Shown here: positions 5,859 to 32,991 of the stretch, in pieces | How positions within the stretch are numbered: the first letter of the stretch is position 1 | Layout: the number at the start of each line of letters is the position of its first letter | From: an uncultured virus (IMG/VR IMGVR_UViG_3300003629_000002) | Lineage: Duplodnaviria; Heunggongvirae; Uroviricota; Caudoviricetes | Length of the DNA stretch: 64,000 nt | IMG/VR virus record: IMGVR_UViG_3300003629_000002 | Strand: one strand, 5' to 3' | The notes under the pieces: generated by a model | Database searches by the model: none | Told to the model about the DNA's origin: nothing | The model's input: the letters and a program-made list of their open reading frames with translations, nothing else | Position numbers and translations under genes: made by a program

Positions 5859-6016
5859 GGCCGACCGCTACTTCAAGGCAAACCCCAACTCTTTAACAGT
5901 TGTTATTGAAGGTTCGATTCCTTCCGTGGGTGGCTCCCTCGTAGGTTAATTTAACAGCCAATTATGGCAGTTCTCGGACTGCCCTATCAAAAGCGGCATT
6001 CGGTGGCCTTATTTTT
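5859..6016 (+). ncRNA. Circularly permuted tRNA-like RNA (YrlA/Y RNA-like)
   Basis: Order: anticodon-like arm CAACT/AGTTG, T arm GAAGG-TTCGATT-CCTTC, loop-closed acceptor stem, D arm; paired termini; own promoter and T-run. Confidence 0.75.
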
Positions 6017-6109
6017 CCGCGAACGTGCTTGCCCTCGCTCCACTCCTTTCTCCCTTTTCGTTTTTCACAATTCGATAGGGTTAAGTATGTGGACGCTTTA
6101 CATAGAAAT

Positions 6110-6394
6110 ATGGCACGTAATACAAATTGTTTGTTCTGCCCTGAACCGGATAGAATCACACGCTGGTTCCACGAGGACTCGGTATGCCTACTTATTAATA
6201 AACCGACAGGTGAACCGATGCTCGTCCTCAAGCGACATACGACGGAGCCAACCGAGAAGGAGATGACGCATATGCGAGAAGTCGCATCTGACTATTGTGG
6301 AGCGCACGATATTCAGGTAATTCTTGACCACGTTCCAAATCATTGGCACGGGCATCTTATCAACTACGAGACACATCCATCGGAGGCTAACTGA
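6110..6394 (+). CDS. HIT-like family protein
   Basis: N-terminal CLFC, MLVLKRH, C-terminal HWHGH. Confidence 0.6.
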   Translation: MARNTNCLFCPEPDRITRWFHEDSVCLLINKPTGEPMLVLKRHTTEPTEKEMTHMREVASDYCGAHDIQVILDHVPNHWHGHLINYETHPSEAN

Positions 6395-6617
6395 TGCGTT
6401 GCCCTGAATATAGCCAGCACGCCTATTCAGTCGAGGATATTCCAGATAGTGACTTCGAGTATTCCGGCTCCTTCGAGGTTGTCGCTTCCTCGCAAGGCGC
6501 AGTTCTTGTCAAAAAGAAATATGTCGCGCATTGCCCGGATTGCCGGACCACCCGGTACAGATTAGCAAAGTATAAATTAGAGATGATTCCACACGATAAC
6601 CTGCCCTTTGGTGAGGT

Positions 6618-7091
6618 ATGAAATTGTATACAGATGCATCGGCTGACGAGAACGCAAACGTATTCGGAATTGGATACATTCTCGAATTGAAGACCGGCGC
6701 ACGAATACAGGGGAAGCACTATGTCGAAGGCGAGTATACCTCGATGGAAGCAGAGTGGTATGCCATTATGCAAGGACTGGAACTTGCAAGTGAGAACATT
6801 ACGTCTCACGATTCGTCAATAGAGGTTATCACGGATTGTAAGCCGCTCGTTAACAAGATTAGAGAGCCTGACGATATGTACGACGACCGATGGTTCAATT
6901 ATCGGCGTCAGATGTTGGGCGAGTTATTCACGTTCGAGGCGTGGGACCTCTACTGGGAGGAACGAAGCACAACCGAGCAAAACGAAAAAGCAAATCGTCT
7001 TGCACGAGAGGCGATGTGGGAAGGTCGTGGTGACGATGGCGTTGTCGGGGGCAATGCCTCAGAAGGTGTCACCTTCAATACAATAGAATGA
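6618..7091 (+). CDS. rnhA: Ribonuclease HI family protein
   Basis: LYTDAS, TSMEAEWYA, ITDCK, NEKANRLA motifs. Confidence 0.85.
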   Translation: MKLYTDASADENANVFGIGYILELKTGARIQGKHYVEGEYTSMEAEWYAIMQGLELASENITSHDSSIEVITDCKPLVNKIREPDDMYDDRWFNYRRQMLGELFTFEAWDLYWEERSTTEQNEKANRLAREAMWEGRGDDGVVGGNASEGVTFNTIE

Positions 7092-7193
7092 CAATACTAT
7101 TTGTCGCCTTTGTCGCTGGAATCGTGCTATATCTCGCCTTCGCCTGTAACAAATAGCGTAACCTTTTTATAGCCGGAGCGCGTTTACTACGAT

Positions 7194-7844
7194 ATGGAGA
7201 AAGTAGAGCGTATCAATCGCGTGAAAAATACATTGGATATGGAGGAACTATATCGGAAACTTCCTGAAGTTGGTACTATTCTTGACCCGGAATTGCAAGA
7301 TATTACAGAGCAGACATTTCTTACTGGCTGTCCTGACCATTTCTGGATTCGCCCGAGTTCCTCGACTGGGAAGTATCATTCTGAAGATGAGACAGGCAAG
7401 TTCGGCAATTGGCTTCACACGAAGCGTGTATTTGTAACATATATGATTCTTAGCCGCTCTTATTTAGAGCAGGGACTCATTTCGGAATTTGACAGAGAGG
7501 CTGGTAAGAGCGCCGCCTTGCTTCACGATATGCTCAAGTATGGCTGGCCGTCAGAGGGTCGTGAGCATACCTCAAATCGTCACGATGTTATCGGGAGCGA
7601 CGTAGCCCGCGTCCTCGGCAAAGCACCAGAGGAAGTCCATCAGGCGATTCACGCACACAACGGAGCGTGGGCCGAGGGGAAGAACCCCGAGACTAACTAC
7701 GAGCAGATTCTTCACTTATCGGATTACGTCGCGTCGAAACCAATTTTGGGAAGTCCGGCTGTCTGGAATCCTGCTGAAGAACTCGAAGAAGCCTTTCCTG
7801 ACCTTCGCACCATCGACGATGACACACTTGAAGGACTGCTCTAA
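7194..7844 (+). CDS. HD-domain phosphohydrolase
   Basis: PSSSTGKYH, HT, AALLHDMLK, H, AHNG, SD motifs. Confidence 0.85.
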   Translation: MEKVERINRVKNTLDMEELYRKLPEVGTILDPELQDITEQTFLTGCPDHFWIRPSSSTGKYHSEDETGKFGNWLHTKRVFVTYMILSRSYLEQGLISEFDREAGKSAALLHDMLKYGWPSEGREHTSNRHDVIGSDVARVLGKAPEEVHQAIHAHNGAWAEGKNPETNYEQILHLSDYVASKPILGSPAVWNPAEELEEAFPDLRTIDDDTLEGLL

Positions 7845-7883
7845 TCGCAAGAGTTAAATACTCCGAAGTCGTAACATATATGT

Positions 7884-7988
7884 ATGAGATTTACTTGTAA
7901 CGTTGGCGAATGTCCGTACAGCACAACTCTCGCAGAAAATATCGGCCTACATCTTGCAGAGGAGCATCCTGAAGAAGTTGAACTATGA
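7884..7988 (+). CDS. 34-aa C2H2 zinc-finger microprotein
   Basis: MRFTCNVGECPY...HLAEEH; follows a TATA box and overlaps the next start. Confidence 0.6.
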   Translation: MRFTCNVGECPYSTTLAENIGLHLAEEHPEEVEL

Positions 7989-8350
7989 ATGTTGCAATTG
8001 TCGGCTCTCGCTCGCTTGAGGGGCGGAGAAGCGATGTTCGAGATGCTATTTTTCGAAGCCCGTGGCTCGCTGAAGGAGAACCATCCGGCGTTGACACAAT
8101 TATCAGCGGCGGTGCTGATGGTGTCGATACGTATGCCGAGCAGGTCGCTGATGAGTTGGCCCTCGATACTCGAATCATCGAGCCAGACTGGGAGTCCTAC
8201 GGGCCTGCGGCTGGACCAAAACGGAATACGAAGATTATCGAAGAAGCAGACGCCGTAATCGTCATATGGGATGGCGCTTCTAACGGCACGGCTGACTCGT
8301 TGCGAAAGGCGATTGATATGGGCAAGACAATTTACGCCGAGCAACTCTAA
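7985..8350 (+). CDS. SLOG family protein (DUF2493/YspA-like)
   Basis: VAIVGSR, ISGGADGVD, AAGPKRN, WDGASNGT. Confidence 0.85.
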   Translation: MNVAIVGSRSLEGRRSDVRDAIFRSPWLAEGEPSGVDTIISGGADGVDTYAEQVADELALDTRIIEPDWESYGPAAGPKRNTKIIEEADAVIVIWDGASNGTADSLRKAIDMGKTIYAEQL

Positions 8351-8388
8351 CCGTTAAGACTATAAGGGAGTAACACCTACGAATAGGT

Positions 8389-9777
8389 ATGAAACTCTAC
8401 GGCGAATACAACGAGGCGACGATTCATACGGAGGCTGAACAGGTTGACGCTTCAGCGATGGAGCAGATTTCCGAAATGGTCAATCATCCCGCGTTCGAGG
8501 GAGACTCGGACGTGTCGATTATGCCTGACTTTCATTGGGGCGCAGGTGCAGTAATCGGATTTACGATGCCCGTAAAAGAGCGTGTCGTTCCGAATACCAT
8601 CGGCGTTGACATTGGTTGCGGAATGTTCGCAGTCAATCTTGGCGATATTGAGTTTGACTCACTTGAGTCGCTCGACTCAGCGGTGCGCTCGCGGATTCCG
8701 ACAGGCTTTGATGTCCACTCGCGGAATGACTATCATATGATTAACGATTTCCCGTGGCAAGCCTGCGAGGATAAGTGGCACTCGTTTGCTGAGAGTACCT
8801 CGTTTGCGCTGGAAAATGAAACGCAGTACCCTCGTGAGACGTACTTCGAGAATCTGTGCAAGCGTGTCGGCTACGATATGGGACGCGCAATTAACAGTAT
8901 CGGCACGCTTGGCGGCGGGAATCACTTCATCGAGTTTGGCCGTGATTCGGAGAATCACGTTTGGTGCATCATCCACTCCGGCTCTCGCGGAATCGGTGCA
9001 GAGATTGCTTCCTATTGGCAGGACCGTGCGACTGAAGCGATGAACGAGCGTGCGATGGAGGGAGATATTCCTGACTCTATCGAGCCGTATCTCTCGGATA
9101 ACTGGAAACCGAAGGCTGACAAGATTCGCGCCAACTTTGAGGGAGAGGACATTCAGGAAAAGTTCAATGAATTGTCACAATTCATTCAGTCCACGAAACA
9201 GGATGAACAGAACCGGAACACGGACCTTGACTATCTCGAAGGAGACGAGGCGCACGGATATATTCGGGATATGATATTCGCACAGACCTATGCCAGCGTC
9301 TCTCGAAAGCAGATGGCTATTGCTGTGCTGGATGCTGTGCGTTCCCTGCAAGACGAGCCTGTCCCCGAAGACGAGGCTCCCGCGTGGTGGAAGGACTCCA
9401 TCGAGTCCGTTCATAATTACATCGACTTCGAGGATGCGACCATTCGCAAAGGAGCCTGTCGCGCACACGCCGATGAGCGGCTCGTTGTTCCGCTTAATAT
9501 GAAGTACGGCACTCTGCTTTGTAAAGGCAAAGGACGCGCTGACTGGAACAATTCAAGCGCACACGGCGCTGGTCGTGCAATGAGCCGGACTGCGGCTCAC
9601 GACAAGTTCACCGACGACGACTTCGAGGAACAGACTGAAGGAGTCTATATGTCGAAGAAACCGATGGACGAAATTCCGGGTGCATATAAGGATGCGTCCT
9701 CCATCGAGTCAGCCTTGGGTGAATCTGTCGAGGTAATCGACCGTGTGATTCCGTTCCTCTCAATCAAGGCGGAGTAA
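8389..9777 (+). CDS. rtcB: RNA-splicing/repair ligase RtcB
   Basis: MPDFHWG, GVDIGCG, GTLGGGNHF, HSGSRG, HN, RKGA, SSAHGAGRAMSR, DEIPGAYK. Confidence 0.97.
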   Translation: MKLYGEYNEATIHTEAEQVDASAMEQISEMVNHPAFEGDSDVSIMPDFHWGAGAVIGFTMPVKERVVPNTIGVDIGCGMFAVNLGDIEFDSLESLDSAVRSRIPTGFDVHSRNDYHMINDFPWQACEDKWHSFAESTSFALENETQYPRETYFENLCKRVGYDMGRAINSIGTLGGGNHFIEFGRDSENHVWCIIHSGSRGIGAEIASYWQDRATEAMNERAMEGDIPDSIEPYLSDNWKPKADKIRANFEGEDIQEKFNELSQFIQSTKQDEQNRNTDLDYLEGDEAHGYIRDMIFAQTYASVSRKQMAIAVLDAVRSLQDEPVPEDEAPAWWKDSIESVHNYIDFEDATIRKGACRAHADERLVVPLNMKYGTLLCKGKGRADWNNSSAHGAGRAMSRTAAHDKFTDDDFEEQTEGVYMSKKPMDEIPGAYKDASSIESALGESVEVIDRVIPFLSIKAE

Positions 9778-10447
9778 CTATGACGAGCAAAGAATTGCTT
9801 GAGGAACAGTTGGAGATACTCGCGGAACACCTTGGTATTAATAGTTCCGAGGATATTATCTCCACGTTCATTCAGCAGAAGGTCGTCAAAATTGACGATA
9901 CCATTGTAACCTATCGTGAGTATGAGGATAAGACGAACTACTTCCTCATTACACCGTTCAGTAGTAGGGCAAACGATGGAGAGAGCGCGAGCCTGAATGC
10001 AGGACCGATTAGTCGGCTTGCAGACCACGGCTTCATCGTAAAGGATGTCACGGCTTACGATTCAGTCGAACCGCGTGGCGGCAAATACTCAGACGAGCAT
10101 AAACATCACCCGAGCGCAGATAAGTATATCACGACTAAATTACGATATGTCGGAATGGACCATCCGATAATTGAAATGTATGAGTAAATATGGTGAATTT
10201 CCGGGTGTTTCGGTTACGACAGAATCAGTCGCTCGTAGTCTGACATACACGGAGAAAATGGAGACGATGGTCTGTATTCGGTTCTGCTTAGGTGATGGAT
10301 ACATTGAAACAAACGGTGTGCAGTCGGCGCTTGAGTGTCTCGGCTATTCACCGTATCGAACGATGCCGATGTTTCAAAAGGCGCTCAAAGAATTAGAGGA
10401 GGAAACCGAAACCTTTAAGTAGGACAAGCACAAATAGTAGAACGCGA

Positions 10448-10579
10448 AGGCCCGTGGCCGAATGGTTTAAGGCGCTATATTCCGTCTTTCAAAATTTGGT
10501 TCGCGGAAGCGAAACGATTGAAAGGCTTACTTCACACCTGATGAGTGAGAGATTGCTGGTTCGAATCCAGTCGGGCCTA
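10448..10579 (+). ncRNA. tRNA-like RNA with a 58-nt structured insert at the D/anticodon junction (unpermuted YrlA-like, or tRNA-Ile(GAT) with a non-canonical intron)
   Basis: Acceptor AGGCCCG/CGGGCCT, D arm, T arm GCTGG-TTCGAAT-CCAGT, loop CTGATGA; insert GTCTTTCAA/TTGAAAGGC followed by TTACTTCA. Confidence 0.7.
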
Positions 10580-11027
10580 TGTCGGAACGGAGTTCCCCGA
10601 GCCTGACCGACTGCTGTATCGGGAAATTAGATACGCTGTTCAACTCAATTCAAAACTTACTTGTTCGTGAAGGGGTCTTGAGGAGCGTATTATTATCGGG
10701 GCGAGCGGTCCTCCTCCTTCACATTCGCAATCACGGTTAGTGGAAAGACTTATTACTGAATAGTGCATACAATTATATATGCATCAGGTAATGTTACGCT
10801 ATCCGTTACTGATTGACGGGGAGTTTCAGAATATGTTCTTTCGGGAGAATTGGAAGACAAATCAGGAGAGTGGCTATATCTCCTTTGGGAACGACCCGAC
10901 CAACGACCACGGATACCCGCAGAACGATGTTATTAGAGTCCCGAAGCACAATGTTCTCGGATGGGTTGAAATCGAGTCAGAGGACTAAACCGAAAAGTTT
11001 AAGTAGAAGGGGTTCCTATTAGGTAAT

Positions 11028-11735
11028 ATGTATAATTCTTGCGATTCGTATAATACCTGTAAGTCCTGTGGTAAGGATTTTAAGAAGATTTCTTTACATT
11101 GGGCAAGTTCTGATTGTAGGTATCCTAAATTGGATAAAGATACAGAGAGTGTTATTAAGGGGTTGCTTGCAGGTGATGCAACTATAGGCAAGGATGGAAG
11201 ATTATCTGTATATACAACTAATCCAATTTTTGCAGAATTTATATACAGACAGTTAATATCTATAGTTCCAGTAACAGTAAGTATTAGAGATGCAGATAGT
11301 AATGAATTAATGAAAAGAGAACTTTTTGAATTAACATTGCCTAAACATAAGTTTACTAAGAAATTAAGGGATGATTGGTATAATCCAAAGAAAATACCTA
11401 AGAATACGGTTGTGGATAAATTATTTACTAAGTATTGGTATGTTTGTGATGGAAATTTAAATAGTAAATATGAGGCATCTATCACAACATCTTCCAAAAA
11501 TATTGAATTTGTAGAAAAATCATTTAATCAATTGCCATTTGAGTATAAAATTAAAAATATCGGCACAACTGAGTTAAGTAATAATGATAGATACAGAATA
11601 TATATTAGTAGTCGGGAAAATGTTGAGAAATTTCTGAATTACCTCGGGGAACCTGTACCCGGATTTGAATACAAGTGGGAAATAGACGGTAATAAGAGAA
11701 AATCTATGAAGCAAGATGTGTACCAAAAGATTTAA
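11028..11735 (+). mobile_element. Free-standing LAGLIDADG-like homing endonuclease
   Basis: VIKGLLAGDAT and YWYVCDGN motifs; LGEPVPGFEYKWE shared with 3722-4456; AT-rich. Confidence 0.8.
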
Positions 11736-11770
11736 GTAGTAGCAGGTTCTATACTATTATGAGTAGTAAC

Positions 11771-11900
11771 GTAGTGGGGCGAGGATTGGGCCTGTTGCCG
11801 TGAGGGGCAGGTCGAACGGAGATTTGGAGAATCTCCACCACGTCCTTTCGTGAGCCGAAACCCGGCAGGTTCCGAAAGGTTGGTTCGGTGAGAACCGATA
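11771..11900 (+). ncRNA. GC-rich multi-hairpin RNA or structured leader
   Basis: Several hairpins with GNRA loops between a promoter and the ORF at 11945. Confidence 0.5.
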
Positions 11901-11944
11901 CCTTTAATACGTGCTAACTCCAATGGGTAATTGGTGAATTACAA

Positions 11945-12970: not shown

Positions 12971-13046
12971 AATAAGGACTATCTGCTGATTTAATTCTTT
13001 CTTTTCTTGCGAAATGCTTAAGTACCCGTAGCCCCTATTTTTGAGT

Positions 13047-14096
13047 ATGACTGATGAACAAGAGTTTCTGCGACACGTATATAATCCGGTGACTGATGCG
13101 TCCTATATGGCAGGCTCGCACAGCAGTCCCGAGATTTCGCTCATTGACTCGATGATTTCGAGCGACAAGCGGCTTGGGGAAGAAATTTTTCAGAACCCCG
13201 AGACGATTGACGTACTACGATTGCTTGTCGCAAAAACGAAGACGCAAATTAGAACAGACCTGTCGCTTGTCTTTCGAGATACGCGCTCGCCAGAGGGCGC
13301 AGATTCGCTGTGTGGCTGTTCCTCGGACGAGTTGACCACGCACACCTATGACTACTTCAAGAACTTCATATCAGGCAATAGACGGTCCTACGCGGAAGCA
13401 CGCTCTGCGGCTGAGACGATGGGTGCATACTTCGAACGTCAGGGCGTCGAGCAAGTCCTGTCAGACTTTCAGGGATTAGGTTCAGCGGCTCGGGCGAGGA
13501 TTCTCGATAACTCGATTCTTCCACACGACCAGCGAGGTTCTCGCTCAAAGCGGCAGGGCCACGGCGTTGAAGCAGAACTTGCACGGATTCTCACCGAATG
13601 CGGCATTGACGTGACTCCCTCGGATAAGACGCAAAATCCAATGGCGGGAGACATTACATTCAATGGAATGAGTTACGACCTGCTAATTGAGAACAACGGC
13701 AAGGTCGAGATTGCGCTTATTTCGCTGTTCCATACGTCGAATCCGGGGCAGTATGGCGCTGACAAGACCGAGAAAACCGAGCAATACGCGGAGTCGCTCG
13801 CCTCCTCCGAGGCGTCATTGTGGGCCTTCTGCGATGGTGCTGGTTTTACGATGCACAACGGCGCATTGCATAATGTGATTGACAACGTGGATAACTTTGT
13901 GCAAGTAAAGTCCTTATGGAAGTTGCCACTTCATCTGCACGAGTCCGGTGTTATTACGCTCAAGGGAGTCACATTCAGCGACTTCTACGATGCGGATGAC
14001 CATCGACGTTTTCGACAGGCGCTCTCGATTGACTTTGGCAAGCCTGACTCGGATGCAACGCCTGTCGATGCAGGCGAAGCAACATTGTGGCTATAG
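13047..14096 (+). CDS. Type II restriction endonuclease-like PD-(D/E)XK nuclease
   Basis: QGHGVE, YDLLI, SNPGQ..K, FCDGAGF (resembles DpnII-like C-terminal motif). Confidence 0.55.
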   Translation: MTDEQEFLRHVYNPVTDASYMAGSHSSPEISLIDSMISSDKRLGEEIFQNPETIDVLRLLVAKTKTQIRTDLSLVFRDTRSPEGADSLCGCSSDELTTHTYDYFKNFISGNRRSYAEARSAAETMGAYFERQGVEQVLSDFQGLGSAARARILDNSILPHDQRGSRSKRQGHGVEAELARILTECGIDVTPSDKTQNPMAGDITFNGMSYDLLIENNGKVEIALISLFHTSNPGQYGADKTEKTEQYAESLASSEASLWAFCDGAGFTMHNGALHNVIDNVDNFVQVKSLWKLPLHLHESGVITLKGVTFSDFYDADDHRRFRQALSIDFGKPDSDATPVDAGEATLWL

Positions 14097-14936
14097 CATC
14101 GAAAGCCTTATGTTTCCACGGCACGTATAATCAGATATGAGCAACAGGTACAGGAAAACCATTAACGATAATACGTACTACGTTTCCGTGCATAGTGGCT
14201 ACTGGTATACAACTGTCAGAATTAGAAAGTGGTCGCAGGGGAGAACCTTGCTAAAGCGTCGAGAGTGGTTCTGCGAGGATGATGAGCGATTAGCCGCAAA
14301 GACACTCAACGAAGCAGTTCAACGCCGCGAGAAACAAATTGCTGAAAGTAATCAATACGATGAACGAATAGAACGCGCTCTCGATGTCGTCCAAGATGAA
14401 TATGACAATTGATGAATTATCGGACGAGGAACAGCAAGAGTTAGCAAAAATGTATCGAGGTATCGGGTCGGCAGATATGACGGCACTTGCGATTACTGCA
14501 AAGTGGGGACCGCGTGAGATTGACGAGATGATATTCAATCTCAAGCAAGTTCGAGATTTCTTCGAGGATATTGAACACTTGCAAGAGGAATGTAACAGCC
14601 CGACTGACCCGATGCAACGACGCATCGAAATGATTAACGGAATGCTGAAACTACTCCGTAAACAGCGTAACCACATAGAAGACACAGCATTCTATTAAAT
14701 CTCCCGTCAAGAAACCTCATACAATTCCGCCGCGTCAATCCTTACTTTATCTATGCGCTCCACATACTTAAGTCTTTTCATGAGACGAATAGCAATAGTT
14801 AAGTATACGTAGCACGTAGTCAATATATGGAAAAACGAGAAGACTCTGAACAGGACGAAGCACCGGAACCTAACTGGAAGCACGGCGATACGATGGAAGC
14901 GTAATAGTTAAGTTACCGTAAATACAATAGCATATT

Positions 14937-15614
14937 ATGGGACTACTTAATAAATTCATTCGAGTGGTGAAGGCGAAGGCGAACAACTTACTCAATAACG
15001 CGGAAGACCCTATCGAGCAACTGGAACTCGCATATGACGAGTTGGAGGACAAGCGCGACAATGTTCGTTCCTCGATTGTGGACGTTATCGCGCAACGAAA
15101 GCGCCTTGAGAGCAGGGTGTCGAAGTTGCAAGATGAAGTGCAGGAGCATAATCGACAGTCTCGCGCTCTTGTCAACGAGGACGAGGACGACCTTGCACGA
15201 GTAGAGTTAGAGAAGAAGAAATCGAAGATGAAGGCAATCGAGAAACTTCAGGGTCAGATTACGCAACTTGACGACCTTGAGCAAGATATGCGCGACCAAC
15301 ACGACGAAATCGAGAGCCGCCTCGATGAACTTGAGACTGAGAAGGAAGTCCTCAAGGCTCGGTACGAGGGCGCTGAAGCGATTGAGGCAGTCAACGAGAG
15401 CCTCTCTGAAGGCATTGGTGACTTCTCAATTGAGGATGCGGTGTCGGATGTTCGGGAAGACGTAGAACAAATGGAGGCTCGTGCAGAGGCTATTCAGGAA
15501 TTTGACGATAGCCAGCAGTCTCACGAGGACCGTGTTGAGGAGATTGCGACTGATGCCGAGGTTGAATCGGAGTTGGAGAGCCTGCGAGGTGAGGCGGAGG
15601 CTGAGGTCGCGTGA
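14937..15614 (+). CDS. pspA: PspA/IM30 family protein
   Basis: MGLLNKFIRVVKAKANNLLNNAEDP, coiled coil, EDDLAR, EVESELESLR. Confidence 0.9.
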   Translation: MGLLNKFIRVVKAKANNLLNNAEDPIEQLELAYDELEDKRDNVRSSIVDVIAQRKRLESRVSKLQDEVQEHNRQSRALVNEDEDDLARVELEKKKSKMKAIEKLQGQITQLDDLEQDMRDQHDEIESRLDELETEKEVLKARYEGAEAIEAVNESLSEGIGDFSIEDAVSDVREDVEQMEARAEAIQEFDDSQQSHEDRVEEIATDAEVESELESLRGEAEAEVA

Positions 15615-15801
15615 GCAAGTGCCACGTCTGCGGTGAGACGTTCACGCGGAAGATAAATCTCGGGAGTGCTGGCACGTTTAACGTAAGCGATAGTGATACT
15701 GTCTGCTATTCGGGAATGTACGATAGGCTTTACTTCCACCAAAACCGAAAGGTTTAAGTAACCCGAGTCCCAATAGTAGTATGCCGTTAACGACGGTACG
15801 A

Positions 15802-15865
15802 GGGAGTCGGATTCATCATTGACAAATGGGTTTTGATGCTCACCTAAAGTAGCATCCCGACTCCC
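15802..15865 (+). ncRNA. Structured RNA in the leader of the Ro60 gene
   Basis: 9-bp GGGAGTCGG/CCGACTCCC stem enclosing two hairpins. Confidence 0.5.
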
Positions 15866-15888
15866 AATTTCAACCGTGGTGATACAAA

Positions 15889-16710
15889 ATGGGAATTAAC
15901 TTCAACGACACGAAAGAGACAGTCGCAGAACGAACCGAGAAGGACAACTATGAGGGAGGAACGGCCTATGAGCCTGACTCGCCCGAGGTTGCGCTGACGA
16001 AGAACGTCCTGACGAATCTGCTTGAAGACTCGTTCTACGAGTCGGCAGAGGACTCGATGGATGCCGTCAAGCGTGAGTTCGAACGAGTTGCAGACTCTAA
16101 TCCAGAGTTTGTCCTGAAGTTGGCTACGTATGCGCGACAGTCTGAGAATCTTCGGCAAGTCCCTCAACTGTTGCTCGTACTCGCGGCCAACGACGCTCGG
16201 ACGAAGGGATACGTTCGTAGTTACGCTGAGTCGATTATTCAGCGTGCAGATGAACCCCTCGAAGTTCTTGCGATGCAGGTTTCCCTGTACGGCAAGTCCA
16301 TCCCGAATCCGCTTGAGAAAGGTATCGAGGATGCACTTCATAATTTCAACGAGTATCAATTCGCAAAGTGGGACCGTCCTTCGAGAGAATGGCAGTACCG
16401 CGACTTGCTGAACTTAGTCCACCCGCGTCCTCGGGATGATGAGAGAGATGCAATCTTTGAGCAAATTGCTCTCGGAGAACTGGACTCTCATCCCGATGTA
16501 GATTCGCTCAAGCAGTCCGATACGTGGGAGGATGAAATGTCTGATGCCGGTAAAGAGGACCGGGATAAGGCAGAGGTTTGGCGCGAACAACTCCGCGAAA
16601 ATGATGAAGGCTACTCGATGCCTATCTTTGCACGGGTTCGTAACGTTCGAAATATGCTTGATGAAGGACTCTCCGGTGAGGAAATCTTCAATTACGATAT
16701 TGAAGAATGA
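15889..16710 (+). CDS. Ro60/TROVE-domain protein, N-terminal part
   Basis: NYEGGTAY, DSFYES, KLATYAR, IQRADEP, FNEYQFAKW, DLLNLVHPRP, TWE, ARVRNVRN. Confidence 0.9.
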   Translation: MGINFNDTKETVAERTEKDNYEGGTAYEPDSPEVALTKNVLTNLLEDSFYESAEDSMDAVKREFERVADSNPEFVLKLATYARQSENLRQVPQLLLVLAANDARTKGYVRSYAESIIQRADEPLEVLAMQVSLYGKSIPNPLEKGIEDALHNFNEYQFAKWDRPSREWQYRDLLNLVHPRPRDDERDAIFEQIALGELDSHPDVDSLKQSDTWEDEMSDAGKEDRDKAEVWREQLRENDEGYSMPIFARVRNVRNMLDEGLSGEEIFNYDIEE

Positions 16711-17411
16711 GCAATTATATTTCAGATAAAGAATTAATTGATGATATAAGGTTAGTTTCATCTGAAATGGGAGAAGTTCCTTCAAGACGCCAGTATAATG
16801 AGCGCGGAAATTATTCTTATAACACGCATTGTCGGAGGTTCGGCTCTTGGAATAGTGCGCTTGAAAAGTCCGTTGGCTCCATAAATAAATATCAGAATAT
16901 TTCTGAAGAAGAATTATATAGCGAAATAGATAGATTATACGAAGAATTAGGCCGACCGCCAATGCAAGAAGATATGAAAAGAATTGGCGAATATAGTCCT
17001 GATACATACCACTATAACTTAGATGGGTGGAGTCAAGCAGTTATAGATGCAGGATATGAACCTATTACAAGAGGTTTTAAAAGTGGAAAGGAGCATCCTG
17101 ATTGGAAAGGTGGCTCTATTGACTATTATGGGCCTAATTGGAGTTCGGTTAGAAAAGAGATTCTTGAAAGGGATAGCAATTGTTGCAGGATATGCTCAGA
17201 ATCAGAGGAGCGACTTTGCGTCCATCATATTAATCCGCGCTCAGAATTTGTTAAAGATGGTGAATACAATTACGAAAAAGCAAACAAGAAGGAAAATCTT
17301 ATAACGCTGTGTGATTCTTGCCATATGAAGTTTGAGGGAAAATTCGCTAACAGTAGCCATACGGAGTTCGAGAATGAAGCGAAAGATTTAAGTAGTACCA
17401 AAACGAAATAA
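16707..17411 (+). mobile_element. HNH homing endonuclease with two N-terminal HNH-associated repeats, inserted in the Ro60 gene
   Basis: RRFGSWNSAL repeat, WKGG, LERD..CRIC, VHHI, NLITLCDSCH; AT-rich. Confidence 0.9.
17380..17395 (+). promoter_or_regulatory. Viral promoter embedded in the HNH 3' end, upstream of the Ro60 C-terminal half
   Basis: cgaaagatttaagtag at leaderless spacing from ATG 17417. Confidence 0.7.
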
Positions 17412-17416
17412 GTAAT

Positions 17417-18157
17417 ATGAAAGATAACAATATTTTCGGAGATACGTCCGAACGAGTTGTACGAAATAGTGGCCTATATCCTTTTAGATATTATCAGGCT
17501 TATAAGGCTATTAAAGAATCACCTGATACACCAAATGATAAGAGGGTATTAGAATGGCTCGAAAACGCAATGCGCGTTGCAACAGAGAATCTGCCGGACG
17601 TATTCGAGAATACGTTTACAGCAGTTGACGTGTCTGGTTCGATGCGTCACGCTGTCTCCGGTGATTCGGAACTCACTTGCAAGGAGATTGCCACGCTGTT
17701 CGGTGCGATGATGCTTGAGCGCGACTCGGATGTAGGCGTGTTTGCAAGCAACTTCGCTGAGGTAAACGCTGACCCGCGCAATCCACTTGTCACCAATGCG
17801 GAGAAGTTACAAGGTTCGCGTGTCGGCGGCTCGACGAATGGCTGGAAGGTGCTTCGTGGGCTGAGAAAAGAGAACCGCTCTTACGACAGGGTGGTAGTCT
17901 TCACGGATATGCAACTCTGGAACGACTCTCCGTACCAGAACTCCTCGTTCAAGGACGAGTGGGATGCCTACAAGCAACAGAATCCTGATGCAAGCCTATA
18001 TCTGATTGACCTTCAGCATTATGGCGACCTCGTTACGCCAGAGGGGGCGCAGGATGTATATAATATCTCCGGCTGGTCTGAGAAGGTTCTCGACTTCATC
18101 GAGGCCATTGAGAATGTCGATGGGATGATTCAAGAGATTGAATCGGTAGAGCCGTAA
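17417..18157 (+). CDS. Ro60/TROVE protein C-terminal part with vWA domain
   Basis: SGLYPFRYYQAY, AVDVSGSM (MIDAS), GGSTNG, VVVFTDMQ, ISGWSEKV. Confidence 0.9.
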   Translation: MKDNNIFGDTSERVVRNSGLYPFRYYQAYKAIKESPDTPNDKRVLEWLENAMRVATENLPDVFENTFTAVDVSGSMRHAVSGDSELTCKEIATLFGAMMLERDSDVGVFASNFAEVNADPRNPLVTNAEKLQGSRVGGSTNGWKVLRGLRKENRSYDRVVVFTDMQLWNDSPYQNSSFKDEWDAYKQQNPDASLYLIDLQHYGDLVTPEGAQDVYNISGWSEKVLDFIEAIENVDGMIQEIESVEP

Positions 18158-18477
18158 TGGGTGTTCACTTCAAGACAGTCGGCGGGTATGAAGTGCTGAC
18201 TGATGGAACAGATTCCTTCAAGCATCATAGACTACTGGCTTGTCTTGATGAAGACCCAAGCGATGTATTCAATGGTCGTATTTGGAATGTGCATCATCGG
18301 AACACAATTTCTTGGGATAATCGACCGGCTAATCTGCTCTTGATTCGCTCACGTTATCATCGAAACTTTCATATGAAAAACGATTGGGCGGAAATTTGTG
18401 CATTCTACAATCAGAATGATGTATCAGATGCACAACTTAGTATTGAGAAATACTACAAGACAATTAGCCACAAGTAA
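18157..18477 (+). CDS. Small HNH-motif protein
   Basis: HRLLA, VHHRN...DNRPANL...H..FH. Confidence 0.7.
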   Translation: MGVHFKTVGGYEVLTDGTDSFKHHRLLACLDEDPSDVFNGRIWNVHHRNTISWDNRPANLLLIRSRYHRNFHMKNDWAEICAFYNQNDVSDAQLSIEKYYKTISHK

Positions 18478-19000
18478 TTTTCGGAAGACTTAAGTCCCTG
18501 TAGGCTGTAATATTTCATATGAGTACGTACATTTGCAAAGCCTGTAGCCACGCTGATAAAGGTAACTTTCGATTTACTGTATCGTGGGATGATTCTGTCG
18601 ATAGTGCATTTGCGACTCGTTGCCCGAGGTGCGGTTCGCTTGAGGAAGAACTTGAGTATCTATGAATAATTTCTCTTTATACGAAGCAATTGACGAAAAA
18701 CTCCGTGACGCTATTGCAAACGCGGAGGAATCATACGATAGTCCGTATATTGTTATTGTTGCTAATCCAGAGATAGTCGATGCCCTGAAGACAAATATGG
18801 ACCCGTCTGTTGGGACAAATATGACGAATGTCAAGATTGACGGCTACGAAATATTTGAATCTGAGGATGTTGTTCTCGGCGTATTTGTCTGTGGCGAGAA
18901 TCTTGATAGTGAGAAGAAACGCATCCAGCAACGTCTTAGAAATAAGATGAATATCTAAGTTATCGAAACCCTTATATGGCATCGTTGCATATAGATACAT

Positions 19001-19885
19001 ATGCGAGACAAAATTAGAAATACAATTTACGAGATTGAGACGAGCGAGAATATCCACGCAATCTCTTGTCGCTCGTTTGGGAGTCATATGATGAACCTCG
19101 ACTCGGACGAGTCAGACTACGATGCGTTTCTCGTCTTCGCGCAAAGTGCGCCGGATTATGCAACTATCGGCGGCTACGAGGATACGCTGACCATTAAGCG
19201 AGGCGAGATTGACTTCCAATGCTGGAACGTCAAAAAGTTTGGCGAACTACTGAATGACTCAAATCCCACGACTCTTGAGTTTCTGAACTCGCCAGTTACG
19301 TACTTCGAGAATCCCGAATTTATCAGCACGCTGGATTCGTTGCGGGAAATGGCGAACGAGAACTTCAAGCCGATTGCGCTCTACTACCATTACCGTAGTA
19401 TGGCGGAGTCGAACTATATGAAGTACCTCAAACCGTGCATCTACGATACGGAGGGAGAGCGATACCCTATCGAGAACGAGGATGACCACTACTGGCATAC
19501 CGGCATTGGTGAGATTCCGAAAGACTCGGATGAGTACGAGGCTGGCAACTTGAAGCAGACTGTCAAGCGTAATCTCTACATTATGCGAGCCATCCTTCAC
19601 GCGAAGCACATCCGCAAGACGCACGAGATGCCGACGATGAACTTCCCTGCATTCGTTGATTCACTCGATGAAGGTGACTTGGGGCTTACGCGAGCAGACA
19701 AGGATAGGCTGAAAAAGTGTATCCATCGAAAGCGTAACGCGAATGCGTATGAGGAAATCGGGAATCCGTTCGAGGATTTCATCGAGGCCGAGTTATCGCG
19801 TGAACTTGACCCGGAAAAACATCTCGACGGAGAGATGAATACTGAGCAGATTAACGAGTTCATCAAGAATGGTATTGTTCGCTGA
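19001..19885 (+). CDS. Pol-beta superfamily nucleotidyltransferase (RlaP/YcgL-like)
   Basis: GSHMMNL...SDYD, WNVKKF..LL..SNP..LEFL.SP, YHYRSMA. Confidence 0.85.
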   Translation: MRDKIRNTIYEIETSENIHAISCRSFGSHMMNLDSDESDYDAFLVFAQSAPDYATIGGYEDTLTIKRGEIDFQCWNVKKFGELLNDSNPTTLEFLNSPVTYFENPEFISTLDSLREMANENFKPIALYYHYRSMAESNYMKYLKPCIYDTEGERYPIENEDDHYWHTGIGEIPKDSDEYEAGNLKQTVKRNLYIMRAILHAKHIRKTHEMPTMNFPAFVDSLDEGDLGLTRADKDRLKKCIHRKRNANAYEEIGNPFEDFIEAELSRELDPEKHLDGEMNTEQINEFIKNGIVR

Positions 19886-31943: not shown

Positions 31944-32016
31944 GGGCGATTGGCCGAATGGATAAGGCGCTGGTTTGCGGAACCAGAGATTGCGGGTTCG
32001 ATTCCTGCATTGCCCA
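31944..32016 (+). tRNA. tRNA-Arg(GCG)
   Basis: Cloverleaf, anticodon arm CTGGT-TTGCGGA-ACCAG. Confidence 0.9.
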
Positions 32017-32722: not shown

Positions 32723-32781
32723 ATTCGTTTTCTAAATCGAAAGGTTTAAATAGTAGGGGCGCATTAGTAAGAGTACGAAGT

Positions 32782-32852
32782 GCCGAAGTGGTCTAAAAGT
32801 AAGATGCGTGCCTGTCACGCACGAGACTCGGGAGCATTACCCGGCTTCGGCG
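32782..32852 (+). tRNA. tRNA-Asp(GTC), atypical T loop
   Basis: CGTGC-CTGTCAC-GCACG; T loop AGCATTA. Confidence 0.8.
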
Positions 32853-32991
32853 TGGGCAATCTGACTTGCCCTTGACTGACGTGAGCCACACGGCAGGATT
32901 GACCAACCCTCGTTATAGGGAATCGTGGTGCATCGTCAGCGTACTGTGACGCCTCACGGTACGGGGGAGTATTCCCCTTTAATGACAGCGT

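Follow-up and report, generated by a model that had tools for sequence, protein, structure and literature searches.

The clustering of genes for RtcB, Ro60 and RlaP in a viral genome rich in tRNA genes raises the question of whether these genes, together with nearby Y RNA-like genes, constitute a system for handling broken tRNA. The first-pass annotation had proposed such a module as a means of countering host anticodon nucleases and of ligating the virus's own tRNA exons. Parts of HGTV-1 (Halogranum tailed virus 1) match the window (the whole 64,000-nucleotide stretch of DNA that was analysed) at 82% nucleotide identity, and the window contains 23 copies of the haloarchaeal BRE/TATA-type motif GAAAnnTTTAAGT, versus 0.18 in shuffles. 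Both results agree with the original assignment to an archaeal virus; judged by its sequence, the window comes from the genome of a haloarchaeal tailed virus akin to HGTV-1. The features discussed here are collected in Table 1.

Table 1 Coordinates of protein genes, RNAs and promoters in the window.
Feature	Position	Strand	Evidence or remark
RNase H-like protein, 157 aa	6618..7091	+	Pfam RVT_3 E 2.6e-9, RNase_H 2.4e-5
HD-domain phosphohydrolase, 216 aa	7194..7844	+	Pfam HD E 1.4e-9
SLOG/DprA-like small protein, 121 aa	7985..8350	+	Pfam DNA_processg_A 2.8e-8, YAcAr 1e-5
RtcB RNA ligase, 462 aa	8389..9777	+	Pfam RtcB E 9.9e-63
BRE/TATA-type promoter ahead of tRNA-like gene	10405..10421	+	motif copy starts 10408
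tRNA-like RNA, anticodon arm swapped for circularly permuted Y-type module	10448..10579	+	
Conserved non-coding trailer 3' of tRNA-like gene	10580..10745	+	conserved in HGTV-1
LAGLIDADG homing endonuclease	11028..11735	+	Pfam LAGLIDADG_2 E 5.3e-10
PspA/IM30 family protein, 225 aa	14937..15614	+	Pfam PspA_IM30 E 2e-26
BRE/TATA-type promoter of Ro60 leader	15743..15760	+	identical in HGTV-1; motif copy 15747
YL1, Y-type RNA, Ro60 leader	15793..15877	+	ends 11 nt before ATG
Ro60 N-terminal fragment, 273 aa	15889..16710	+	Pfam TROVE E 2.1e-17
HNH homing endonuclease inside Ro60, 234 aa	16707..17411	+	Pfam HNH_repeat E 9.5e-34, HNH 1.1e-6
Promoter motif within 3' end of HNH endonuclease ORF	17381..17397	+	motif copy 17381
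Ro60 C-terminal fragment, 246 aa	17417..18157	+	Pfam vWA_Ro60 E 3.4e-10
Small HNH protein, 106 aa, directly 3' of Ro60	18157..18477	+	
RlaP nucleotidyltransferase, 294 aa	19001..19885	+	Pfam RlaP E 3.6e-35
Viral tRNA gene array	31944..44682	+	
tRNA-Ile(gat), 60-nt intron at canonical site	39102..39235	+	Rfam tRNA 47.6 bits
YL2, Y-type RNA	41420..41500	+	fills gap from tRNA-Leu(tag) end 41419 to tRNA-Leu(gag) start 41507

Gene content of the block and the viral tRNAs

A Pfam scan of 23 ORFs confirmed the RtcB, HD, SLOG, PspA and RlaP proteins that had been named earlier. The HIT-like protein of the same annotation was not recovered: the H.H.H motif is absent from 24 translated ORFs, and no HIT family was detected at E <= 1 among 15 small or unknown ORFs or in the 23-ORF scan. 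Synteny with HGTV-1 covers 22 of the 28 ORFs tested, at 38-90% protein identity, and since RtcB, a TROVE protein and a nucleotidyltransferase are already annotated in the syntenic block, the repair gene set itself was already known. The viral RtcB (73% identity to HGTV-1 gp140) aligns with Pyrococcus PH1602 RtcB over the catalytic stretches MPDxHxGxG, DIxCG, GxGNHF, HxGSRGxG and HGAGR. RlaP is 84% identical to gp126, the RNase H-like protein 68% identical to gp145 (annotated 'RNAse HI'), the HD protein 84% identical to gp143 with a match to PHROG 5889 (E 8.8e-57; function not assigned there), and the SLOG/DprA-like protein, which belongs to PHROG 289 ('GTP-binding domain'), 65% identical to gp141. 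The small HNH protein matches PHROG 7545 HNH endonuclease (E 1e-10) and, under the cut-off, Pfam HNH_3 (E 1.8e-4); it is kept in HGTV-1 (84% identity to gp128). The LAGLIDADG ORF is absent at the equivalent HGTV-1 place, its matches in that genome being non-syntenic LAGLIDADG genes only. No PspA relative was found by tblastn in 50,697 phage records (E <= 1e-3) or in the HGTV-1 loci, and by these searches PspA is specific to the window's virus. Pfam scans of the block ORFs revealed no RtcA, Archease or RtcR-like regulator. For PspA, HD and SLOG, a link to RNA repair in the window is hypothetical.

The repair genes are separated by promoters, homing endonucleases and replication-type genes, the last also conserved in L010, a third related virus, so that the idea of a single operon had to be abandoned. 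Because these genes do not form one operon and others are interspersed, their linkage may be plain early-region synteny. Ro60, RlaP, RtcB and Y-type RNAs occur together in all three related viruses examined: the window, HGTV-1 and L010, which encodes RtcB, an Rnl2-type ligase, a split Ro60, RlaP and 606-aa and 341-aa neighbours. Ro60 and RlaP are spaced 0.8-1 kb apart in each of the three, and Ro60 and RtcB lie 6 kb apart in the window and about 9 kb apart in L010. The expected co-occurrence is seen among these relatives. RtcB, on the other hand, is present in many haloviruses; among those listed in the phage searches (40 of 101 rows in one of them), HGTV-1 alone has Ro60 or RlaP, so that RtcB does not depend on Ro60.

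RtcB joins RNA ends bearing a 3'-phosphate or 2',3'-cyclic phosphate to those with a 5'-OH, and RlaP extends damaged 3' ends by one or two nucleotides. ARAGORN predicted 32 tRNAs in the window and Rfam matched 29, adding to the ARAGORN set the intron-bearing tRNA-Ile and the tRNA-like gene at 10448-10579. The tRNA-Ile folds into a clean cloverleaf with ARAGORN -i and has a candidate bulge-helix-bulge where expected. Its 60-nt intron would need an RtcB-type ligase, in keeping with the proposed ligation of the virus's own exons. RtcB might then merely ligate such exons as a backup to the host enzyme, while Ro60, RlaP, HD, SLOG and PspA would be unrelated accessory genes sharing a conserved early region. 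We regard this as unlikely. The intron-bearing tRNA-Ile and the intron-bearing tRNA-Ala of HGTV-1 speak for it, as do the distributions of RtcB, Ro60 and RlaP among haloviruses, the replication-type genes that interrupt the block and the lack of PspA in HGTV-1 and the phage records. It accounts poorly, however, for the retention of the combination in all three archaeal viruses and for the fact that bacteria and jumbo phages repeatedly combine RtcB and RlaP with a TROVE protein and a tRNA-like RNA; in jumbo phages the ligase is RtcB or an Rnl type, and it is found with RlaP, a ROT/TROVE protein and the tRNA-like partner of that protein set (PMC7824862).

The Y-type module and the three RNAs

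In the Y-type module, an outer helix is followed by an internal loop that is CGA/U-rich (5' side CGA, 3' side AAYUU), then by a covarying helix of 9 bp and finally by UACUUC. Alignment of nine copies showed 91% of inner-helix cells paired, with seven of nine pairs changing on both sides, a covariation score reached by none of 500 shuffles. Among twelve copies from cellular genomes, pairing is kept in 94.3% of cells, and 13 of the 16 pairs vary on both sides (0/500 shuffles). A census of 49 haloarchaeal Ro60 loci found 27 modules at 21 loci, every one upstream on the Ro60 strand; none lies on the opposite strand in the 49 loci and none occurs in shuffles. In ten of the 21 loci with a module, one near-identical 8/9 candidate copy recurs, and the remaining 28 loci have no module under the strict pattern.

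Model R2, built solely from cellular haloarchaeal RNAs, ranked YL2 first in the window (44.8 bits, E 2.9e-10) and YL1 second (13.1 bits, E 0.19), the next match having E 1.8. The same model found copies in HGTV-1 at E 8e-7 and 0.009, the latter being the YL1 counterpart (18.5 bits). Model R1, derived from a phage contig only, again placed YL2 at the top (18.8 bits, E 0.026) and missed YL1 in the window search. YL2 is 94% identical to an unannotated HGTV-1 gap and has a fold z-score of -4.6, with none of 200 shuffles as good; its position in the viral tRNA array resembles that of the Halogranum rubrum Y-type RNAs, which lie within a tRNA array preceding Ro60. YL1 has a fold z-score of -2.36, its inner hairpin is fully compensated relative to HGTV-1, and a variant contig supplies three compensatory pairs (15803/15864, 15836/15855 and 15838/15853).

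The third RNA scores 42.7 bits with the Rfam tRNA model, with a 71-nt insert, and its acceptor and T stems covary relative to HGTV-1. ARAGORN called the gene Ile(gat) in the window; for the HGTV-1 copy it gave Ser(gga), whereas the record of that genome lists Asp(gtc). The module, identified by eye and with a simple descriptor rather than a covariance model, runs in the order 3' strand, AAUUU, closing hairpin, ACGA, 5' strand and UUACUUC; the 9-bp arm retains 9/9 pairs in both viruses, with five pairs changed. This circularly permuted form as a replacement of the anticodon arm appears to be new. The trailer contains two predicted hairpins and varies little relative to HGTV-1.

None of the three window RNAs matches Rfam Y_RNA, YrlA or YrlB at the gathering score or at E <= 5-10. 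The design of the viral and haloarchaeal module is nevertheless that of the basal stem of bacterial YrlA. In L010, a YrlA-type RNA carries both a T arm and this basal module, and L003 has an Rfam YrlA core match (42.8 bits, E 2e-8) with the same basal design. Because of this design and of its place beside haloarchaeal Ro60 genes, the module is read as a putative Ro60 docking site, and we read the three RNAs as Y RNAs. The Y RNA-like genes of the first-pass annotation are thus retained as three RNAs with a covarying, Ro60-associated module, although outside the Rfam Y RNA families; YL1 and the tRNA-like RNA lie within the originally assigned interval (5859..19885), whereas YL2 lies outside it. 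RNAs of this kind had not previously been noted in archaea or archaeal viruses and appear to be new.

The Ro60 gene and its HNH cassette

Ro60 itself is present, with TROVE and vWA_Ro60 matches, but as two ORFs parted by an HNH gene, a split that had been overlooked. The N fragment corresponds, at 88-90% identity, to residues 1-267 of HGTV-1 gp129, which is intact; homology ends at 16689 and is followed by six extra codons and a stop, which the start of the HNH endonuclease overlaps (ATGA). The C fragment begins with five extra codons, resumes homology at 17432 with 81-82% identity to residues 266-507 of gp129, and keeps the D.S.S stretch AVDVSGSM. The break follows residue 267, with exact boundaries at 16689 and 17432. 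HGTV-1 has an unbroken gene and lacks the cassette, which provides a stop codon, a start codon and a promoter roughly 25 nt ahead of the C-fragment ATG. Such a split by an HNH cassette appears new, and diverged relatives from metagenomes share it: four N fragments (P0002, P0003, P0005 and P0006; 54-61% identical) stop at that very residue and carry a homologous extra tail, and four C fragments (P0033, P0034, P0036 and P0038) begin at the same place as that of the window.

One could suppose that the insertion killed Ro60 and that 15793-15877 is a cis-acting leader, e.g. an autoregulatory or stabilising 5' UTR, rather than a free Y RNA. In its favour, no terminator was seen in the 11 nt between YL1 and the ATG, a Shine-Dalgarno-like GGUGAU directly adjoins the 3' strand of YL1, and the L010 Ro60 gene is leaderless, its Y-type RNAs being located elsewhere. 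However, both halves have open frames with low pN/pS (N fragment, pN 0.061 and pS 0.322; C fragment, pN 0.127 and pS 0.784), values that span the whole divergence from HGTV-1, including the time before the split. The split is kept with the same tail and start in relatives only 54-67% identical, the cassette brings a promoter for the C half, and L010 Ro60 is split at a second site with both halves intact. Moreover, neither YL2 nor the HGTV-1 YL3 copy precedes a Ro60 gene. We consider a dead Ro60 with a mere leader very unlikely.

Structure prediction lends weak support to a complex of the two halves, which leaves some room for that view. The predicted complex scored 0.50 (best of three controls, 0.00), with at least 41% of contacts agreeing between runs and a partner pLDDT of at least 75. 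Of 157 solved complexes, 116 pass the same mark, as do 2 of 215 mismatched pairs; at scores of 0.60 or less, however, only 18 of the 157 pass, plus both of those mismatches. As Ro60 structures have been solved, the pass may come from structures memorised by the predictor.

Ro60 and Y RNAs in decay or repair

A Ro60-Y RNA particle could also serve RNA decay or quality control, with RtcB and RlaP acting separately. As in Deinococcus, Ro60 would be linked through a Y RNA to an exonuclease, and the particle would degrade structured or misfolded RNAs, e.g. those of the host or viral tRNA transcripts that are faulty. The sole tested role of bacterial Ro60/Y RNA is reported to be the specialising of PNPase for the decay of structured RNA (PMC4201824 and PMC7790460), and the distance between Ro60 and RtcB, which are separated by further genes and promoters, also fits this explanation. 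On the other hand, no exonuclease gene was seen adjoining Ro60 in the Pfam scans of block ORFs, Ro60 closely accompanies RlaP in all three viruses, and a tRNA-shaped Y RNA along with Y RNAs in tRNA arrays suggests a tRNA theme. Decay without repair is, in our estimate, rather unlikely.

An RNA-repair system in which Ro60 and three Y RNAs act with RlaP, RtcB and the HD protein on broken tRNA is the overall explanation that we find probable, if not strongly so. The early/middle block would hold a conserved gene set, HD and SLOG included, for broken or misfolded RNA. Ro60, its gene split by a mobile HNH cassette, would be produced as two polypeptides, YL1 would be the leader of the Ro60 mRNA, and YL2 may be released from the tRNA-Leu transcript by tRNA end-processing enzymes. 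The third Y RNA would be a complete tRNA body, with acceptor, D and T arms, in which the docking module takes the place of the anticodon arm. Presumably, Ro60 and its Y RNAs bind damaged or nicked tRNAs, both viral and host. The tRNA-shaped Y RNA may recruit tRNA-recognising enzymes to Ro60 or be an uncleavable decoy; YrlA's tRNA-like domain is described as escaping anticodon nuclease cleavage and might inhibit the nuclease (PMC7790460). RlaP is reported to add 1-2 nt to damaged RNA and to be required for restoring repaired tRNA (bioRxiv 10.64898/2025.12.29.696909). The HD protein, RlaP and RtcB would heal and seal the ends, and such tRNA repair may counter host nucleases, sustaining translation while host RNases attack tRNA during infection.

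Gene block and its relation to HGTV-1

Pfam searches bore out the RtcB, HD, SLOG/DprA-like, PspA and RlaP genes that the first-pass annotation had assigned to a viral RNA-repair block. The HIT-like protein of that proposal is absent, as an H.H.H motif occurs in 0 of 24 translated ORFs and no HIT family matched at E ≤ 1. Ro60 was recovered through its TROVE and vWA_Ro60 domains, but these lie in two ORFs, not in one. The RtcB gene (Pfam E 9.9e-63) encodes conserved stretches that align with Pyrococcus PH1602, in agreement with an RtcB fold, and its Cys/His residues presumably have metal- and GMP-binding roles. The RlaP protein matches PF10127 (E 3.6e-35) over profile positions 1-247 of 249 and contains FGSHMMNLDSDESDYD, in which we take GS...D.D to be the form of the nucleotidyltransferase motif. 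Predictions for RlaP and for ROT/TROVE proteins reportedly go back to Burroughs and Aravind in 2016. A protein-atlas search with the 135-aa ORF gave no usable match, and PDB sequence searches with the 606-aa, 351-aa and HD proteins returned nothing useful.

A search of 50,697 phage records with 5859-19885 as the query gave a sole match, HGTV-1 (Halogranum tailed virus 1), at 82.4% identity over 21% of the query. By tblastn against 52 kb of HGTV-1, 22 of 28 window ORFs have syntenic matches. The other six have no counterpart at the corresponding place, and the LAGLIDADG gene among them matches only other LAGLIDADG genes elsewhere in HGTV-1 (24-29% identity). We read the window as a second member of the HGTV-1 group. 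The gene order is the same in HGTV-1 (NC_021328; Liu et al. 2021, PMC8651126), whose record annotates RtcB, a 509-aa 'TROVE domain' RNA-binding protein, a nucleotidyltransferase and 36 tRNAs; thus, the gene set as such was already known. The available sections of Liu et al. 2021 (PMC8651126) do not discuss Ro60. Elsewhere the window encodes tailed-virus proteins and enzymes of nucleotide metabolism, and ARAGORN identifies 32 tRNAs.

The genome is heavily invaded by homing elements. The ribonucleotide reductase contains an intein with a LAGLIDADG domain, two PD-(D/E)XK_5 endonuclease genes lie inside the tRNA array, and a further LAGLIDADG gene lies at 3722-4456. The 351-aa ORF shows faint matches to restriction enzymes (RE_BanI, E 0.018; EcoRII-C, 0.14) and may be another nuclease insert. 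The PspA/IM30 protein, a membrane-remodelling or membrane-stress protein and an unusual cargo for an archaeal virus, had no tblastn match in the 50,697 phage records or in the HGTV-1 loci searched.

A haloarchaeal BRE/TATA-type motif, GAAAnn(n)TTTAA(G/A)T, occurs 23 times in the window, 21 of them on the + strand, compared with a mean of 0.18 in 50 shuffles. Most copies precede an ATG or a tRNA by 25-35 nt, a spacing suggestive of early or middle transcripts that lack a leader. Written as (A)A(T/C)CGAAAnnTTTAA(G/A)TA, the motif is very uniform (for example at 2028, 10408, 15747, 31871 and 52750).

Coordinates of the features discussed, in the window unless HGTV-1 is named
Feature	Coordinates	Basis or position
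LAGLIDADG (further gene)	3722-4456	
RNase H-like	6618-7091	Pfam
HD	7194-7844	Pfam
SLOG/DprA-like	7985-8350	Pfam
RtcB	8389-9777	Pfam
ORF	9780-10187	no counterpart at HGTV-1 place
Promoter motif	10408	before tRNA-like gene
tRNA-like gene	10448-10579	circularly permuted Y-type module
Trailer	10580-10745	
Promoter motif	10992	
LAGLIDADG	11028-11735	Pfam; no counterpart at HGTV-1 place
341-aa gene	11945-12970	
351-aa ORF	13041-14096	absent from HGTV-1
ORF	14137-14412	no counterpart at HGTV-1 place
PspA	14937-15614	Pfam; no counterpart at HGTV-1 place
Promoter motif	15747	before YL1/Ro60
YL1	15793-15877	Ro60 leader
TROVE (Ro60 N half)	15889-16710	Pfam
HNH with homing-endonuclease repeats (234 aa)	16707-17411	Pfam; no counterpart at HGTV-1 place
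Promoter motif	17381	~25 nt before new ATG of Ro60 C half
Ro60 vWA (C half)	17417-18157	Pfam
Small HNH	18157-18477	Pfam
RlaP	19001-19885	Pfam
Promoter motif	20287	
Ribonucleotide reductase, intein-bearing	27052-30543 (minus strand)	rest of window
tRNA array	31944-44682	ARAGORN
PD-(D/E)XK_5 endonuclease genes	32220-32660, 35298-35810	inside tRNA array
Hairpin common to both viruses	37530-37579 (minus strand); HGTV-1 L008 19162-19211	adjoins tRNA-Ala(tgc)
tRNA-Ile	39102-39235	control for bulge-helix-bulge scan
Promoter motif	41296	before tRNA-Leu/YL2 unit
YL2	41420-41500	between tRNA-Leu genes
ThyX, dCTP deaminase, TMP kinase		rest of window
Family B DNA polymerase, baseplate J		rest of window
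HGTV-1 YL1	L001 14171-14258	ahead of gp129 (whole Ro60); unannotated
HGTV-1 YL2	L008 15707-15788 (minus strand)	gap between tRNA-Leu genes; unannotated
HGTV-1 YL3	L001 11223-11288	ahead of tRNA-like gene; unannotated

Y-type RNAs and their haloarchaeal relatives

The Rfam Y_RNA, YrlA (RF02553) and YrlB families gave no match in the window at the gathering score, nor at E ≤ 5 or 10. As a positive control, the phage contig L003 yielded YrlA at 42.8 bits (E 2e-8), which is under the gathering score of 69. None of the Rfam Y RNA families was found in the phage contig L006, and the IMG/VR contig L010 and the haloarchaeal locus L038 gave tRNA only. The Y RNA-like genes of the first-pass annotation consequently have no Rfam match, but three RNAs of the window do carry a covarying module linked to Ro60.

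YL1, YL2, their HGTV-1 copies and YL3, a further HGTV-1 copy, share one plan, in which a 5-7 bp outer helix is followed by an internal loop, a 9-bp inner helix and the sequence (A/U)UACUUC. The internal loop has (N)CGA on its 5' side and AAYUUNN on its 3' side. The inner helix has a different sequence in each copy, and across nine aligned copies, with YL3 one register off, 91% of inner-helix cells are paired and 7 of 9 pairs are changed on both sides, a covariation score reached by 0 of 500 shuffles. The CGA is invariant in all nine aligned copies and in twelve of twelve cellular copies. These RNAs have the interrupted helix and conserved 5'-strand motif of a Y RNA basal stem, and the helices are backed by covariation. 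The CGA forms the core of the motifs linked to Ro binding, GGUCCGA in vertebrates and GNCGAA(N)G in bacteria (Chen et al. 2014, PMC4201824). The full bacterial/vertebrate motif is matched only in part, as GGUACGA here versus GGUCCGA. The basal plan of L003, which bears the Rfam YrlA core, is the same as that of the module.

YL1 belongs to a stretch of 105 nt, from the promoter motif to the Ro60 ATG, that is conserved in HGTV-1, and its 3' end lies 11 nt ahead of that ATG. Its 9-bp helix is closed by further hairpins; one of 6 bp has a wholly different sequence in HGTV-1 with complementarity kept. Further compensatory changes, at pairs 15803/15864, 15836/15855 and 15838/15853, are seen in a variant contig of a sequencing run from a hypersaline lake. 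YL2 fills the exact gap between two tRNA-Leu genes (fold z = -4.6) and is 94% identical to the unannotated gap of HGTV-1. It is 25 kb away from Ro60, in the tRNA array, and the tRNA-like RNA lies 5.3 kb upstream of Ro60. A hairpin recovered with the module descriptor is common to both viruses and lies on the strand opposite the tRNAs.

Outside the haloviruses, the closest Ro60 (44% identical) is that of L006, a metagenome contig that looks like a bacterial phage with its RecA and sigma-70-like promoter. Four tandem units precede the L006 Ro60, with the order GCGA, 9-bp helix, UACUUCG, ..., AAUAUU, and one of them has a T arm. A covariance model built from these four units alone (R1) was run over the whole window with filters off; its best match was 41419-41497, that is YL2 (18.8 bits, E 0.026), and YL1 was not detected. 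A metagenome scan with the single, poor pattern derived from the three-row alignment A1 returned only two loci.

An alignment scan for Ro60 over one genome per prokaryote species found 58 loci, of which 49 are haloarchaeal. The haloarchaeal protein is 76-100% identical across many genera, with one locus at 49%. The gene is on plasmids in several strains, and some genomes or plasmids hold two copies; it looks like the cargo of a mobile element spreading between genera. The module was sought in these loci as CGA, nine bases, (A/T)TAC(T/C)TC and a complement of at least 8/9 within 200 nt. The pattern occurs 27 times in 21 of the 49 loci, always upstream of Ro60 and on the Ro60 strand, though ten loci share one near-identical 8/9 copy for which coding overlap is possible. 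By this strict pattern the module is absent from 28 of the 49 loci; none was seen on the opposite strand or in shuffled versions of the 49. The RNAs are thus encoded beside or with the Ro60 gene, as expected of Y RNAs. In 11 loci, 12 of the 27 copies show 9/9 pairs and the tail RRUUUYCC. The Ro60 gene of Halogranum rubrum is preceded by three tRNAs, two Y-type RNAs with T arms and a further tRNA, in that order; a primase-polymerase and a HerA/TraG-like ATPase are encoded near this Ro60.

Twelve cellular copies from nine loci have 94.3% of cells paired and 13 of 16 pairs changed on both sides, which 0 of 500 shuffles equalled. A covariance model built from those twelve alone (R2), applied to both window strands with filters off, matched YL2 best (44.8 bits, E 2.9e-10), then YL1 (13.1 bits, E 0.19), with the next match at 9.6 bits (E 1.8). 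By its significant match, YL2 belongs to the haloarchaeal family of Ro60-adjacent RNAs as defined here. Elsewhere, R2 found the HGTV-1 YL2 (E 8e-7) and YL1 (E 0.009) and unit 2 of L006 (E 0.007). The model is unable to score the circularly permuted copy within the tRNA-like gene.

The tRNA-like gene scores 42.7 bits against the Rfam tRNA model with a 71-nt insert, and has acceptor, D and T arms; the acceptor and T stems show compensatory changes relative to HGTV-1. A canonical tRNA would have a 5-bp anticodon stem, a 7-nt loop and a stable anticodon, or a bulge-helix-bulge intron, and the gene departs from this. Its identity is unstable, since ARAGORN calls Ile(gat) in the window and Ser(gga) in HGTV-1, and the HGTV-1 record has Asp(gtc) with an intron. 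A normal tRNA-Asp(gtc) is present elsewhere in both genomes, and the annotated 'tRNA-Asp(gtc)+intron' of HGTV-1 is probably not a decoding tRNA. An intron was considered for the insert: a scan that recovered the expected bulge-helix-bulge site in the control, the truly intron-bearing tRNA-Ile, gave only weak candidates in the tRNA-like genes, and the spliced products read as tRNAs without an anticodon arm. A C/D-box RNA was likewise rejected, as the UGAUGA and CUGA of the window are not conserved in HGTV-1.

The insert instead reads as the module in circular permutation. Its 5' part supplies the 3' strand of the 9-bp helix, AAUUU(G/C) and a closing hairpin in place of the outer helix; its 3' part continues with (A)CGA, the 5' strand of the helix and UUACUUC. 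In both viruses all nine positions of the helix pair, and five of the pairs differ between the two. A covarying 4-bp pairing (p40/q100), UUUC/GAGA in the window (10487-10490 with 10547-10550) and UCUG/CAGA in HGTV-1 (L001 11337-11340 with 11396-11399), could join the first strand of the arm to bases close to the T arm, perhaps as an alternative or a tertiary contact. The trailer that follows is non-coding and conserved with HGTV-1, with two hairpins, the first beginning GUCGG...CCGAC; its variation is too low for a structure test. IMG/VR DNA pattern scans with the tRNA-like gene and trailer returned HGTV-1 only. In L010, a YrlA-type RNA with basal module and T arm is followed by two tRNA-like genes with long arms at the anticodon position.

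YrlA (Chen et al. 2014, PMC4201824; Wang et al. 2018, bioRxiv 10.1101/312249) similarly joins a Ro-binding stem with a CGA-containing 5' strand to T, D and acceptor-like arms. However, YrlA ends in the Ro-binding stem and its acceptor-like stem is a closed hairpin, whereas the window RNA ends in a 7-bp acceptor stem and has the Ro module as a closed arm. YL1 and YL2, unlike YrlA, have no T arm. Judged from sequence and covariation, the assignment as Y RNAs in the functional sense appears firm for YL2, good for YL1 and plausible for the permuted copy. The HGTV-1 record annotates none of the Y-type RNAs: nothing is entered in the gap that YL2 occupies, YL1 and YL3 carry no feature, and the tRNA-like gene appears as tRNA-Asp(gtc) with an intron.

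Ro60 in two pieces

Together, the two Ro60 ORFs cover the intact 509-aa HGTV-1 protein from end to end, at 88% and 81% identity. The order of a TROVE domain (HEAT-repeat ring) followed by a vWA domain with D.S.S, here in AVDVSGSM and presumably the MIDAS motif, is that of Ro60. The protein is not one polypeptide, as the ORFs are in different frames and a 742-bp insert lies between 16689, where DNA homology to HGTV-1 ends, and 17432, where it restarts. The insert gives the N half six extra codons and a stop, which the ATG of the HNH ORF overlaps, and, after its promoter motif, supplies a new ATG and five new codons for the C half. A group I intron or an intein was considered; the N half, HNH and C half are each in a different frame and each has its own start and stop codon, and no intron family matched. 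The insert is therefore neither an intein nor, as far as seen, an intron. Short contigs from the hypersaline-lake run neither joined across nor spanned it.

Relative to HGTV-1, the N half has pN 0.061 and pS 0.322, and the C half 0.127 and 0.784. The pS values of the N half at 15889-16689 (0.32) and of the 341-aa gene upstream (0.47) are well below the 0.66-0.79 of their neighbours, and silent-site divergence rises sharply at the endonuclease insert. This pattern resembles a recombination tract with its edge at the insert, such as a recent DNA exchange between the lineages would leave.

The split recurs in relatives. Four of the 31 matches to the N half (270-281 aa, 54-61% identical) stop at the same residue with a related added tail, and 4 of 10 aligned C-half relatives (49 matches) start at the same place. 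One N and one C fragment carry the same longest-contig figure, 14,886, and may come from one contig. Three shorter proteins (162-164 aa), all that were aligned of this size, stop near residue 160. The DNA of L010 has this second split site, with Ro60 N (162 aa), an HNH endonuclease and Ro60 C (335 aa) in succession; the endonuclease has the same architecture as that of the window (23% identical, E 1e-11).

A predicted complex of the two halves scored 0.50, compared with 0.00 for the best of three controls; the mark for a complex is reached by 116 of 157 solved complexes and 2 of 215 mismatched pairs, and passes at 0.60 or under came from only 18 of the 157 and from both passing mismatches. At least 41% of contacts agree between runs, and the partner pLDDT is at least 75. 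The prediction lends weak support to a complex of the halves; solved Ro60 structures exist, so the score may reflect structures already known to the predictor.

Phage genes are known to be split by free-standing homing endonucleases, an example being nrdA of Aeromonas phage Aeh1, split by mobE. As in those cases, an endonuclease gene lies inside a conserved gene, two ORFs still encode all of the protein, and the closest relative, here HGTV-1, has the gene whole. In contrast to them, the target is Ro60 and the cassette provides the C half with a haloarchaeal promoter. This split is also present in relatives as little as 54% identical, and another virus is split at a second site.

One system or several

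The Salmonella enterica rsr-yrlBA-rtcBA operon (Chen 2013/2014; Hughes 2020, PMC7790460) resembles the window in combining genes for Ro60 (Rsr), Y RNAs and RtcB, in having at least one tRNA mimic among the Y RNAs, and in its tie to tRNA damage. The enterobacterial organization itself is not present: no RtcA, CARF or sigma-54 activator family was found among 38 ORFs scanned at 4480-22147, RtcA and RtcR do not lie beside the genes, RtcR/sigma-54 control is lacking, and the block, with separate promoter motifs at 10408, 10992, 15747, 17381 and 20287, is not one transcription unit. The window also differs in its archaeal host and viral carrier, in that the Rfam YrlA/YrlB models are unmatched, and in that its mimic has an open acceptor stem, as true tRNAs do, and a hairpin-closed Ro module, the reverse of YrlA. 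Jumbo-phage RNA repair sets, which comprise RtcB or Rnl1/Rnl2, RlaP, a CCA enzyme and ROT/TROVE with a tRNA-like partner (Iyer et al. 2021, PMC7824862), are similar in joining many virus-borne tRNA genes to RtcB, RlaP and a TROVE protein, and in the role proposed against host RNase effectors. Here, by contrast, the carrier is an archaeal virus of the ~144 kb class, the Y-type RNAs are defined with covariation, and Ro60 is split by a homing endonuclease.

If the components act together, YL2 and the tRNA-like RNA would be freed by RNase P and RNase Z, like tRNAs; YrlA of M. smegmatis undergoes RNase P cleavage and CCA addition (PMC4201824). Ro60 built from two chains would dock on the CGA loop, and the resulting RNP would encounter damaged tRNAs, which HD, RlaP and RtcB could heal and seal; RlaP adds 1-2 nt to damaged RNA 3' ends (bioRxiv 10.64898/2025.12.29.696909). 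The tRNA-bodied Y RNA, being without an anticodon loop, could be a decoy of the kind considered for YrlA by Hughes et al. 2020 (PMC7790460).

Several observations speak against the components forming one system. Replication-type genes, which are also kept in L010, are interspersed with them over 13 kb. Co-occurrence across haloviruses, on which the module of the first-pass annotation depended, is seen in HGTV-1, where Ro60, RlaP and RtcB are found together, but was seen in no other listed halovirus: RtcB (633 phage records) is present in many haloviruses, HGTV-1 is the sole halovirus among the 63 phage records with RlaP, and for Ro60 (101 phage records) it is the sole one among the 40 matches listed and the organism names seen.

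We offer only tentatively, as a reading that may well prove wrong, that an as yet undescribed archaeal branch of the Ro60-Y RNA system exists in haloarchaea and in their viruses and mobile elements, with Y RNAs made like tRNAs in tRNA arrays. One viral form would be a complete tRNA body with the anticodon arm replaced by a Ro60 docking module, an uncleavable tRNA decoy that either soaks up host anticodon nucleases or passes Ro60 to RtcB, RlaP and the CCA enzyme as a virus-borne counter-defence; Ro60 would tolerate division into two or three pieces, and homing endonucleases would thereby spread. Literature searches turned up no Y RNA described for archaea or archaeal viruses; the word 'archaea' is absent from Chen et al. 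2014 (PMC4201824), and an Asgard-virus preprint notes a Ro60 gene without naming any RNA.

Ro60 and Y RNAs have been studied in animals and bacteria. The R2 model is a means to annotate Y-type RNAs in haloarchaeal genomes, where Rfam yields nothing. The recurrent two-piece Ro60 marks where the ring can be cut yet kept by selection, and the tRNA-bodied Y RNA is a natural test of whether tRNA mimicry recruits tRNA enzymes or decoys anticodon nucleases. HGTV-1 on Halogranum is a cultivable virus-host pair that carries the whole set with defined Y-type RNAs, and brings the third domain of life within experiment.
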